Shown: positions 60,261-64,000 of the stretch, in pieces | How positions within the stretch are numbered: the stretch's first letter is position 1 | Layout of the letters: the number at the start of each line of letters is the position of its first letter | Source of the DNA: Octopus vulgaris | Lineage: Eukaryota | Length of the DNA: 64,000 nucleotides | Direction of reading: 5' to 3' | Assembly (NCBI GenBank): GCA_951406725.2 | Contig: OX597835.1 | Location: 36,270,001-36,334,000, forward strand | Translations under genes and position numbers: made by a program | Notes under the pieces: model-generated | The model's input: the letters and a program-made list of their open reading frames with translations, nothing else | Told to the model about the DNA's origin: nothing | The model's database searches: none

Positions 60261-60692
60261 AGGAGGAGGTGGTTGTGGTGGTGGTGGTGGTTTGATAATT
60301 GTGTTCGTGTATGCATGTGTGTGTGTGCATCACTAAGAATAAGTGTACATCTGTGTGCTACATGTGTGTATATTGTTGTGTGTGTGTGTACGTATGCATA
60401 TAACAGATTGTGTGTAAGTGTGTACGTGTGCATGTGTGCGTGTGTGCGTGACTGCGTGTGTGTGTGTATGTGTGTGTGTGTGAGTATATAAATGAATGAA
60501 TAAATGAATGTGTGTGTGTGTGTGTTTGTGTGTATTGGAAAGATGGGGAACAATAAAAGGAATGAAGACTTTAAACTGCTTTAACACCCCCGAGTAATGT
60601 TACCGCAAGCTACAGTGCCATCCCACACACCCACACACACACACACACACATACTGTTGATACATGTATATGTGTCTGTGTGTGTATGTATG

Positions 60693-60752
<60 letters not shown>

Positions 60753-60872
60753 GATTCGTTTATACATGTCTTCAAGTATATATATATCCATCATAATTTA
60801 TGCTTATACACATGTATACACACATCTACTCACACACTCGCATACAATCACACACACACACACAAACACACA

Positions 60873-60944
<72 letters not shown>

Positions 60945-61064
60945 ACTTATAAATTTCAATTTCTTTTGCCCCTGTTTATAAGTTGTCTATAGATTCAACC
61001 TTTAAAGGTATTTTTCAATATGCTGGCCACTGATAAATTTTTTCTAAAATTTTATTCTATATTA

Positions 61065-61106
<42 letters not shown>

Positions 61107-61249
61107 GCAATAAAGATTCAAGTTAATTTAAATGAATTTACTTGAATATGGTACCTAACTTAGATGCACCAAAAAAAACTATACTGTTTTAACAATACAG
61201 TAATGTGGGGTGATTATAAGCGAGAAAGAAGCAACAAGAATGGATAGGT

Positions 61250-61340
61250 TTTTAGTACAATCGTTTCATACAAGGACAGGCTTTATTAAAAGTTGCAAAA
61301 ATTACAGCATATAAACGTGTCCCGTACTCATCAGCTAAAA
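61250..61340 (-). ncRNA. Mirror-image hammerhead ribozyme on the other palindrome arm
   Basis: Reverse complement of 61676-61766. Confidence 0.75.
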
Positions 61341-61675
61341 TACATGTGAGTTCTCTAGACATCCTAGTGGTTGAGGCTATACTCATGAAGTAATGTAGAT
61401 AATTAAGTAACATAAACAGATTTCCAAAGTTCATTAAAGTTCTTTAAAGATGATGTACAATCTTATCACAGAATTTTAAAAAGTTTTAATAGCATCACAG
61501 AGAAGGTGACCTTCTCTGTGATGCTATTAAAACTTTTTAAAATTCTGTGATAAGACTGTACATCATCTTTAAAGAACTTTAATGAACTTTGGAAATCTGT
61601 TTATGTTACTTAATTATCTACATTACTTCATGAGTATAGCCTCAACCACTAGGATGTCTAGAGAACTCACATGTA

Positions 61676-61766
61676 TTTTAGCTGATGAGTACGGGACACG
61701 TTTATATGCTGTAATTTTTGCAACTTTTAATAAAGCCTGTCCTTGTATGAAACGATTGTACTAAAA
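61676..61766 (+). ncRNA. Minimal type I hammerhead ribozyme (Penelope-like-element type)
   Basis: Stem I ttttag(61676-81)/ctaaaa(61761-66), CTGATGA 61682-88, stem II gtac.ggac...gtcc..gtat, GAAAC 61749-53, short loop gatt, cleavage triplet GTA 61758-60. Confidence 0.75.
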
Positions 61767-61796
61767 ACCTATCCATTCTTGTTGCTTCTTTCTCGC

Positions 61797-61881
<85 letters not shown>

Positions 61882-61884
<3 letters not shown>

Positions 61885-61998
61885 AGAGTTTACGAAAAAA
61901 ACAAAAGATGAAGACAGGTGGTGTACAAAACAAACAGAAGTATTAGTATAACGCTCAGGAATAGAAAAAGTCTTTTACGTTTCGAGCCTACGCTCTTC

Positions 61999-62000
<2 letters not shown>
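61882..62000 (-). mobile_element. Truncated Penelope-like terminal repeat with partial hammerhead motif
   Basis: Minus strand agaaGAGcgtaggCTC-GAAAC-gtaaaagac. The 5' part of the core is lost in (TA)n. Confidence 0.5.
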
Positions 62001-62034
<34 letters not shown>

Positions 62035-62037
62035 GAC

Positions 62038-62181
62038 AATACCAAACTCATTCCCTATGGATACCGTATTTATTACAACTCGTGGCTTGTAAACGTATCT
62101 AACTCGCTTTCGCTCGTTAGATACGTTTACAAGCCACTCGTTGTAATAAATACGGTATCCATAGGGAATGAGTTTGGTATT
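62038..62181 (-). other. 144-nt terminal hairpin (42-bp + 22-bp stems, two tandem GA mismatches, GCGAAAGC cap on the minus strand)
   Basis: Arms 62038-79/62140-81 and 62082-103/62116-137 are perfectly complementary. The only non-Watson-Crick stem positions are tc/tc on plus, which read ga/ga on minus. Confidence 0.95.
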
Positions 62182-62469
62182 TTATTTATTACACACGAAT
62201 AAACGACCATATTTTATTAATCTAATAATTAAATTCTTCACATCATGTTGAAGCGCGCATGAATACAGCTTGATTTCACGTCAGTGACGTCACAATGTGT
62301 AACTGTAAAAGATGTCATGCCGCAGGAAGATAGTCCGACTTTATTGCGCTAAGTTTTCAGGTGAAATGACTGATAACTGATGACTATTTAACATTTTGTT
62401 AACATTCAAGTTCACGTTCAAGAAATACATAACACAGATTGAATCTTCAATAACTTTAATAATACTCAA

Positions 62470-62791
62470 ACATGATTTCGAGTAGCAATGTCAGTCAGAG
62501 TAGAGCTCAGTAGTCCAGTAAAACCAAAGAAGTTCACATTGAATGTTCCCCCAAATATTGGAGCCGAGAAAATGGAGTGCAATGAACCAAAGCAAGTGAC
62601 AGCGTTCCGAGATTGACTCGACGTAACGTTGACGGTGGAGGGAGTTCACTTGCACTCGCTGCTGCTGTGTGTGACGGAGGTAGAAGCGAACCCGGCTGGT
62701 CGTTGTTGCTACTAAGGATGTTACTGATGGCACGATGACGATCCATGGAAATATTGCTGTAACTATTGATGCTTTGCACATTACGATGTCC
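62470..62791 (-). pseudogene. C-terminal remnant of a Crypton/DUF3504 (KIAA1958-like) tyrosine recombinase
   Basis: GHRNVQSINSYSNISMDRHRAISNILSS: H-x8-Y spacing as in YR box II (His codon 62788-86, Tyr codon 62761-59). It is followed by a low-complexity S/P/A linker and, in a shifted frame, SIFSAPIFGGTFNVNFF. The upstream H-x-x-R motif is absent. Confidence 0.7.
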
Positions 62792-63235
62792 CTGGTATAA
62801 AAAAAGATAGTATGTTTGTTTAATTATATGGCTACATTCTACCTGCTCGTGAAAGTTTAGTTGTAACTTATGAATGACAAAAGTAGTGCCGTCACCGTGA
62901 CCTTGGGTCATCACCATGGATTGACCAATCAGAAGCAGCGCTCGCAGTATCTGACATATGTTAGATACCAAAAATATCTCAAAGTGTTCTCACTCACATG
63001 TGTGTAATAAATATATATATATATTTCAACACGGAGCAAATTATTCATGAGAAAAATAATTCACGTCCAAATACCTGAATGTATGCTGAGAGATTGTCTC
63101 AGTCCGTTTGCCTCCGGACGGTAGATTTCTGTAGTTATTATCAGTATATTTTGGCGATTTAAATGAGAGTTTTGACTGTTATTTCCAGCAGGTAGACATA
63201 CTTAGTATGTCCTTTGATTAATTGTAATCCTTCAG

Positions 63236-63276
<41 letters not shown>

Positions 63277-63313
63277 TATGTACATTTGTGTATGTACATA
63301 CTTACATCTATAC

Positions 63314-63351
<38 letters not shown>

Positions 63352-63459
63352 GCACAGTACAAAGTACACACACTGAGTGGGCCGTGTCTCAACCCCAATA
63401 GAGAAAATGAAGGTCTCCATACTCTCTCGACCAGTTAGAAATAGCAGTTAACTCTCTCG

Positions 63460-63531
63460 TACGCAGTGGGACTGAACCCGGAACCTTGTGGTTGGTACGC
63501 AAGCTACTTACCACACAGCCACTCCTGCGCC
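63460..63531 (-). mobile_element. SINE family C head fragment
   Basis: Reverse complement ggcgcaggagtggctgtgtggtaagtagcttgc...ccgggttcagtcccactgcgt. Confidence 0.8.
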
Positions 63532-64000
63532 TTGCTTATAATTTCAGCAAATGCTCTTCGCTGATCAGTGCTGATGTATGCTAACCGATAATACATCGTC
63601 GACGATTTATTGATAAACATAAAACAAAAGAAAAAATCGAAATAAGCACTTCGTCAACAATTATAAGGAAAATTATATTATACCACACGATTTAACCGAA
63701 AACGAAACAAAAAATTATCAAGCTGATAAAGCAAAGCAATGGACAAACACAAGAAACAATTCACATTCATGTTATCATATATAAAGTCGTAGCTGTAACT
63801 GTTCTCGCTTGAAGATCACGGTTGCAAGAAACTCGAGCCACGAGGAAAACATTCCATGTTAAGCATACATGTGTGTGTGTGTATATTTGAGTACGTATTA
63901 ATGCATGTCAATATAATTACAAACAACAAAGATTTACACAAACTTGCAGCAAATCATATCATTTGGTATAACAAGAACAGATTCTTCGTATTCGACACCA

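Follow-up and report, generated by a model that had tools for sequence, protein, structure and literature searches.

The DNA studied here is a 64,000-nucleotide stretch of the Octopus vulgaris genome (GenBank assembly GCA_951406725.2, contig OX597835.1, positions 36,270,001 to 36,334,000 of the forward strand; below, the window). Positions 62032-63010 of the window are an internally deleted, non-coding copy of a CryptonA element, a DNA transposon of the DUF3504 tyrosine-recombinase type. Global alignment with a full-length copy, L033, showed 95.7% identity outside deletions of 1,388, 47 and 1 bp, and seven longer copies hold about 1.39 kb of extra DNA at 62791/62792. This agrees with an earlier note, made from the letters of the window alone, which had described an internally deleted tyrosine-recombinase element with retained ends. 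The approximately 1-kb unit outlined there also stands, with corrected boundaries: the true ends are 62032 and 63010, and the last three nucleotides (63011-63013) of the fourth copy of a motif assigned to the element belong to a TA run of the target. Features of the copy are collected in Table 1.

Table 1. Features of the CryptonA copy and its immediate flanks, in window coordinates
Positions	Strand	Feature	Basis or remark
62028..62031	+	Target-derived left half-site RTAN (here ATAT, within a TA run)	Outside the element
62032..62037	+	Left end ATAGAC (ATAGAG in the family), the 6-nt side of the spacer loop	114 intact left ends
62038..62181	+	Terminal hairpin, 144 nt; contains three 2x2 mismatch sites and is capped by a mini-hairpin	
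62103..62116	-	Hairpin tip; minus strand reads CGAGCGAAAGCGAG, as the plus strand does in most copies; GCGAAAGC DNA mini-hairpin inside	
62182..62185	+	Four nt facing the left-end spacer (asymmetric 6-versus-4 loop in the folded form)	L019 junction fold
62186..62196	+	Junction partner: internal segment complementary to the terminal 11 nt at the right end (62183 motif of the earlier note)	
62197..62521	-	Recombinase gene: final codons and 3′ untranslated region	47 bp absent at 62521/62522 relative to L033
62522..62791	-	Remnant of the recombinase reading frame from Gly419; catalytic His420 and Tyr429 kept; non-functional	Base absent at 62639/62640
62791..62792	.	Junction of the 1,388-bp internal deletion; start codon and residues 1-418 lost	Alignment to L033
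62792..62999	-	5′ region of the gene: CCAAT-like box 62922-62930, palindrome 62947-62968	Conserved among copies
63000..63010	+	Right end GTGTGTAATAA, the left arm in the recombination site of the element	Flanking sequence varies from 63011 on
63011..63020	+	Spacer and right half-site (TAY, +7 to +9), both derived from the target	

Several observations of the earlier note were reproduced exactly. The motif TATTTATTACA occurs four times in the 64-kb window, on the plus strand at 62067 and 62183 and on the minus strand at 62142 and 63003. The palindrome GTATCTGAC-ATAT-GTTAGATAC is present at 62947-62968, with its counterparts inside the hairpin at 62095 (GTATCTAAC) and 62116 (GTTAGATAC). The minus-strand peptide GHRNVQSINSYS begins at 62791, its His and Tyr codons being 62788-62786 and 62761-62759. 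The hairpin arms (62030-62103 and 62116-62189) are 93% complementary, and the predicted fold of the hairpin as DNA has an energy of -72.2 kcal/mol. A search of positions 60500-64000 against Rfam returned nothing at the gathering score, and no hammerhead. The CCAAT-like box at 62922-62930 is a likely promoter. Contig depth over 62890-62979 was approximately 1-4 times that of the best-covered hairpin bin, depending on the sequencing run; a sister family may share this right-end segment.

The recombinase was identified in longer copies. An open frame of 522 amino acids in L034 contains R266, K299, H394, R397, H420 and Y429. It matches three Pfam families only (DUF3504, Phage_integrase and QRICH1); no reverse transcriptase, DDE transposase or GCR1_C domain was found in the Pfam scan of this main open reading frame (ORF), and the remaining open frames of the full-length element are short overlaps of it. 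The ORFs of L034 and L040 gave E values of 1e-26 to 1e-25 with DUF3504 and of 7e-09 to 3e-08 with Phage_integrase. The earlier note had expected such similarity of the window peptide itself: the longer-copy ORF has it (DUF3504, E 1.7e-26; Phage_integrase, E 7e-09), while the window peptide alone does not, and none of four window peptides matched a recombinase in Pfam. Since the window peptide alone matches no recombinase family, the identification rests on the longer copies. The catalytic R, K, H, R, H and Y are retained in 42, 41, 41, 43, 43 and 43 of 43 aligned proteins, respectively. The nearest named protein comes from Octopus sinensis (95%), followed by mollusc and coral DUF3504 proteins. 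The predicted structure of the L034 protein (mean predicted local distance difference test score, pLDDT, 79.4) matches QRICH1, Cre (E 5e-08), Xer (Z 16.3) and the integron integrase 2a3v (E 1e-06, Z 13.0).

Residues 4-60 of the L034 protein form a small N-terminal domain of predicted Tudor/SH3-like fold (best Z 8.1, PHF19), which, as modelled, could be a chromatin reader or a DNA binder. Nine single-exon recombinase-like genes (L165-L173) were also seen in the octopus genome, in clusters on two contigs; by eye, the distal GH..Y is missing from them. No comparable hairpin was found near these nine genes, and the four that were scanned matched DUF3504 without Phage_integrase. They are likely domesticated Cryptons.

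Genomic copies and insertion products

A DNA search of the octopus genome (2.8 Gb, 227 contigs) retrieved 381 candidate places, of which 40 were scored. A 33-mer located beside the hairpin had 247 exact matches in the genome, with 0 for the control, which sets the number of copies at 247 at least. The sample analyzed was drawn from 100 listed places out of the 247 (30 loci and 60 stretches), with the addition of loci from other searches. It contained 121 distinct left ends, or 118 after removal of the duplicates L084, L012 and L014. Among the 118, the left end was intact in 114 and the right end lay inside the fetched stretch in 114. Both junctions could be read in 101 copies, a set that was chosen for an intact AATAA right end and from which the tandem L019 and copies with changed right termini were left out; 7 further copies have an altered end. 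The earlier note had suggested that copies be collected in order to fix the ends and find an autonomous one: the ends are now fixed, and the L034 frame is open with all six catalytic residues. The hairpin and the right end occur together in 114 of the 118 distinct copies examined, as had been predicted, and their pairing is not due to chance.

A short class of approximately 410 bp makes up 51 of the 101 copies (mean divergence 1.6%), and seven copies are near full-length (about 2.4 kb). Left-end variants among the 114 intact copies are ATAGAG (85), AGAGAG (17) and ATAGAC (4). The T-to-G change at base +1 of the left end (62033), present in 17/114 copies, is spread over sub-lineages. The 4-nt segment at 62182-62185 is unaltered in 116 of the 118 copies, a constancy that is partly anchor-selected. 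Contigs of four public sequencing runs, from three organisms, contain the family; no RNA run was listed as holding it among the public runs, and a scan of viral contigs found no relative. Eight copies (L068, L106, L107, L109, L136, L161, L163 and L164) have one common 12-nt left flank and differ in hairpin and body lengths; they either inserted repeatedly into one host repeat or were carried by it. L009 and L011-L014, located on one contig with common flanks and without a right end, are segmental duplicates of one truncated copy.

The earlier note had described the element as TA-flanked, which does not hold as a rule: 82 of the 101 copies were left after TA-run targets and repeated left flanks had been removed, and target positions were counted in these 82. 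On the left, -4 is a purine in 77, -3 is T in 66, -2 is A in 81 and -1 is variable; on the right, +7 is T in 61 (p 3e-15), +8 is A in 50 and +9 is a pyrimidine in 59. The target rule is thus RTA-N8-TAY, with no duplication. Spacer positions +1 to +6 show a weak A/T bias only, so that spacer homology is not needed. Empty-site comparison, another check that the note had proposed, showed for six insertions in host repeats that the flanks rejoin without duplication or loss, within one base of alignment ambiguity. A TA duplication as the flank was considered and rejected.

A single switch point from target to element was found, after the first spacer base (crossover TAA|AT). In loxP, two arms surround an 8-bp spacer and the cut lies one base inside. 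The element's own spacer is present at 114/114 intact left ends, a result that follows partly from the construction of the search. The reciprocal product was not found at any of the 118 left ends, the four remaining ones being truncated or internally deleted upon inspection. Right flanks within one mismatch of the element's spacer were found in 1/101 copies, and a genome-wide pattern for spacer-like right flanks retrieved two places, one of which is the L019 tandem.

Junction partner, hairpin forms and proposed mechanism

Positions 62182-62196, directly behind the hairpin, are complementary to the sequence that arises when the right end is joined to the left end. The motif copy at 62183, taken in the earlier note for a binding-type box, is part of this complement instead. 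A natural head-to-tail right/left junction is available in L019. Its predicted fold has a stem 14 bp longer than that of the hairpin and a bulge of two unpaired bases just inside the crossover, with 6 bases on the end side against 4 on the partner side. A second natural right/left junction is found in a metagenome contig, L208.

In integrons, attC x attI recombination joins a folded single-strand site to a duplex partner, one strand is exchanged and replication completes the process (accessible parts of PMC3458562 and PMC2727003). We consider it probable that the octopus family moves in a similar manner, as a folded single strand, by an exchange of one strand that is completed by replication. 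The plus strand of the window would fold when single-stranded, and a recombinase supplied in trans would cut this strand at each end, one base into the spacer. The right end would be joined to the left end to give a single-stranded circle, while the donor would stay in place. In the circle, GTGTGTAATAA|ATAGAG-AATACC would pair with GGTATT-TTAT-TTATTACACAC, building a Cre-like site whose spacer is the 6-versus-4 loop; this loop would determine which strand is used and prevent another exchange. The folded site would then recombine on one strand with a duplex RTA-N8-TAY, the other strand being copied by replication or repair. Template switching during copying of the hairpin would likely yield inverted or converted mismatch sites, and the GA hairpin would aid folding, apparently without being essential in each round.

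The one-sided spacer products also bear on excision of a duplex circle followed by two-strand exchange, with the hairpin acting as a cruciform, an accessory protein-binding site or a replication signal, and with one-sided repair of the spacer. A duplex circle is the published proposal (PMC3212892 and PMC13565253, as far as their accessible text goes); clean excisions have been observed for CryptonF (accessible part of PMC9977147) and junction reads for Starships (preprint 10.64898/2026.09.21.753150, available part), and inverted hairpin tips require both strands at some stage. In the duplex form, however, the element's half-sites would be 9 bp apart, as opposed to 8 bp in the target; repair without bias would be expected to yield both kinds of spacer product, of which the reciprocal one is seen at 0/118 left ends; and covariation of the internal right-end complement across families is left unexplained. 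We therefore regard the duplex route as unlikely, though deserving some weight.

The complement behind the hairpin could also belong to a DIRS-like cycle. Reverse transcription in trans would then turn a transcript into cDNA, and the post-hairpin segment would bring both cDNA ends together so that they could be ligated prior to integration. The arrangement is that of the DIRS junction mimic described in the accessible part of PMC7192593, and the GA strand of the octopus family is antisense to the gene, which is the polarity of first-strand cDNA. Against this, no reverse transcriptase is evident in the full-length element with its one recombinase ORF, deleted copies retain both ends and have no tails, and one distant family has the opposite gene orientation relative to the hairpin. 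In addition, the likely promoter lies approximately 80 nt inside the right end, so that a transcript would lack conserved terminal DNA. A reverse-transcribed intermediate thus appears quite improbable.

In the majority of copies, the hairpin carries tandem GA/GA mismatches at three sites and the GCGAAAGC cap, all on the plus strand. The cap is an unusually stable DNA mini-hairpin that is far less stable as RNA (PMC13037366, accessible part). The inverted TC form was found at the left outer site in 20/113 copies, left middle in 18/85, tip in 23/81 (the other 58 tips being of the GA form), right middle in 24/95 and right outer in 3/114, the difference between the outer sites (20 left, 3 right) being significant (p 0.0005). 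Among the 61 hairpins that could be read throughout, 28 have GA at every site and 33 are mosaics; complete inversion was not found. TC-form sites, one or more, are present in 47/114 copies; hence, the GA strand bias is not strictly required. The window copy is among these 47, with TC at four of its five sites (left outer, both middle and tip) and GA at the right outer one. It has three diagnostic variants common to full-length copies, which read GA wherever readable, so that its sequence makes it likely that the inversion arose in its own history. TC sites are commoner in the short, most amplified class (27/34 vs 13/26, p 0.027), and within 51 short copies divergence has no link to the number of inverted sites (rho -0.14, p 0.32). 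Taken together, this suggests that mosaics arise during transposition and are tolerated. Not every mosaic pattern fits a single template switch.

Inverted tips are also seen in distant families (loci L177, L190, L225 and L209), as would be expected if the hairpin were a replication origin or the hairpin end of a linear intermediate, of the rolling-hairpin or telomere-resolvase type, with flip and flop forms as replication isomers. GCGAAAGC has moreover been found at phage single-strand priming sites (available part of PMC13037366). Yet the absence of fully inverted hairpins, the asymmetric patterns, a spacer loop that never inverts and the lack of an encoded replication protein make this explanation highly unlikely. 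Mosaics, though not the element itself, might instead be assembly or polishing artefacts at a near-palindrome: short reads can align either way on a hairpin, and the window copy's own form is spanned by none of the listed contigs. Mosaic hairpins nevertheless recur in other organisms, in independent contigs from metagenomes. Two contigs that come from other studies are 11 and 8 letters off the window (counts that, alone, fit mosaic forms), and the asymmetry of the outer sites also speaks against an artefact, which we consider a negligible prospect.

Several points count against transfer of a folded single strand. No circle or single-stranded intermediate was seen. The L019 and L208 junctions could be insertions beside an existing copy, and no right-to-left joint was found among the contigs listed from the four runs, the right end having fallen in a skipped repeat (an empty site for the window copy was likewise absent from these contigs). 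The choice of the plus strand as the one cut and exchanged rests on loxP geometry, which we take to apply here, and two-strand exchange with biased repair would give identical junctions. Computed fold energies of the two strands are nearly alike (-71.3 vs -69.6). The empty-site comparison for L033 shows 4 extra bases, the right flanks of L148 and L255 resemble the element's spacer, and the excess of TC sites in the most amplified class belongs here as well. Finally, for distant families, the 6-versus-4 loop comes from visual inspection of five loci.

Distant Cryptons and known systems

A metagenome scan returned 325 relatives, and 80 of these were kept; distant relatives have about 40% protein identity. 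A hairpin lies at most 1.1 kb downstream of the gene in 29 loci, and in 24 of the 38 loci with at least 750 nt of downstream DNA; the 29-locus counts retain L199 and L205, which look unrelated, and L180 and L227, which are without the left-end motif. The 29 hairpins fall into approximately 20 sequence groups, with no more than 48% similarity to the octopus hairpin. The 2x2 loops in them are GA/GA in 43 cases and TC/TC in 8, with any other combination seen at most 3 times. The cap GCGN(N)AGC shares the strand in 11 of the 29 loci and is on the opposite one in 4; a single locus has it on both strands, and 13 have none. An ATAG-type left-end motif was found in 18/29 loci. A post-hairpin segment matching the far end (score of at least 12) was found in 11 of the 21 loci with upstream DNA, compared to 2/420 shuffles; L239, one of the 11, is probably a chance match. 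Distant animal Cryptons retain the layout with different sequences. The palindrome at 62947, described in the earlier note as a repeat of the hairpin core, is real as such in the octopus family and exceeds shuffles in only 1/10 distant loci. The idea that a subterminal palindrome generally repeats the core of the hairpin was accordingly rejected.

No downstream hairpin was found in 14 of the 38 eligible loci, four of which (L210, L212, L218 and L219) carry an upstream one. Together with L209 and L242, these four make up one apparent family of six loci in which the hairpin is upstream and the gene is reversed relative to it. GA is mainly on the sense strand in 4/6 of these loci, and in L242 the matching far end is downstream of the gene. 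The folded strand would therefore follow the ends and not the transcript.

CryptonA elements are already known, and the target rule, the strand asymmetry and the flip/flop counts are added here. As in the survey by Kojima and Jurka (2011; accessible part of PMC3212892), the octopus family has a single DUF3504 tyrosine-recombinase gene with R-H-R-Y intact, no terminal inverted repeats, no target duplication and many non-autonomous derivatives. Unlike in that survey, where no terminal repeats were found in animal Cryptons and, in the accessible part, a hairpin or palindrome is never mentioned, the ends, hairpin, junction partner and target rule are defined for the octopus family. We found a DUF3504 ORF, the catalytic set, dispersed multicopy occurrence with non-autonomous derivatives and neither target duplication nor terminal inverted repeats; these protein-domain and feature matches support the assignment to CryptonA.

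The likeness to integrons (PMC3458562 and PMC2727003, accessible parts) lies in a likely folded site with unpaired spacer bases, a duplex partner, a probable one-strand exchange and a tolerant terminal structure; an attC-type stem-loop with unpaired spacer bases is present in the predicted L019 junction fold. In contrast to integrons, the octopus element has no GTTRRRY at the crossover, its site forms only upon joining of two ends, and it encodes its own enzyme, whose model is no further from Cre and Xer than from IntI. The note's match to this core is a coincidence, since GTTAGAT lies at the hairpin tip, approximately 85 nt from TAA|AT. Its comparison of a folded and a duplex site with attC x attI has indirect support in the predicted fold of the junction, the geometry of the targets and the one-sidedness of the products; the integron core is absent from the crossover. 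The octopus element is therefore not an integron member.

DIRS elements, as presented in the accessible part of PMC7192593, also have an internal segment complementary to joined ends and a tyrosine recombinase and insert beside existing copies. The octopus element (2.4 kb, one ORF) differs from them in having no reverse transcriptase, gag or inverted long terminal repeats, and its complement directly adjoins the terminal hairpin, with an imperfection of 2 nt at the spacer. CryptonF-1_cRei and Starships share with it a short target motif resembling one terminus and a circle junction that was proposed or detected (PMC9977147 and 10.64898/2026.09.21.753150, available parts). Their recombinases are of other lineages, and the octopus target is a two-armed site with a free spacer. 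In the available parts, the Starship preprint does not mention a hairpin or the term single-stranded, and a 2026 paper on Glomhopper (PMC13465315) mentions neither hairpin nor palindrome. A 2026 review (PMC13565253, accessible part) states that Crypton transposition has not been experimentally demonstrated and assumes a double-stranded circle.

The layout was not described in the literature searched, outside of which lie Repbase, Dfam, most subscription papers and supplements, so that a database note on hairpin ends may exist. Some Eulor repeats are said to be described in Repbase as hairpin-tailed, which the literature search did not confirm. Some Eulor repeats are now filed as Crypton (PMC5753468, accessible part).

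We lean slightly towards the broader view that animal CryptonA elements are eukaryotic integron-like units, the ends of which would build a single-stranded site capped by a mini-hairpin that undergoes Cre-like one-strand exchange into any RTA-N8-TAY duplex. If so, animal genomes would have their first known pathway in which a tyrosine recombinase acts on a single strand, bacterial folded-strand recombination would also operate in animals, and a 522-aa enzyme would be available for inserting DNA with neither homology in the spacer nor duplication of the target. The same activity would be ancestral to the domesticated DUF3504 proteins QRICH1, ZMYM and KCTD1, with structured DNA suggested as the ancestral DUF3504 ligand. 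The mechanism can be put to a direct test, since the family provides a naturally intact gene, exactly placed ends, a rule for its targets and a predicted substrate in which the unpaired bases are specified.

Neighbouring repeats

Positions 61215-61801 of the window form a near-perfect palindrome with two 293-bp arms (99%). The arm belongs to a young high-copy repeat (1,203 candidate places) that sometimes occurs in inverted pairs. Beside one copy of the repeat, L259, there are broken frames that resemble a Penelope-like reverse transcriptase in their motifs; Pfam found no family in them. A very high-copy short repeat, with contig depth in the millions, is located at 61889-61999 between TA runs. 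Its end resembles a minimal hammerhead core; Rfam did not return one. The flanks of five Crypton copies (L106, L107, L130, L136 and L164) resemble this short repeat, probably via its TA runs.
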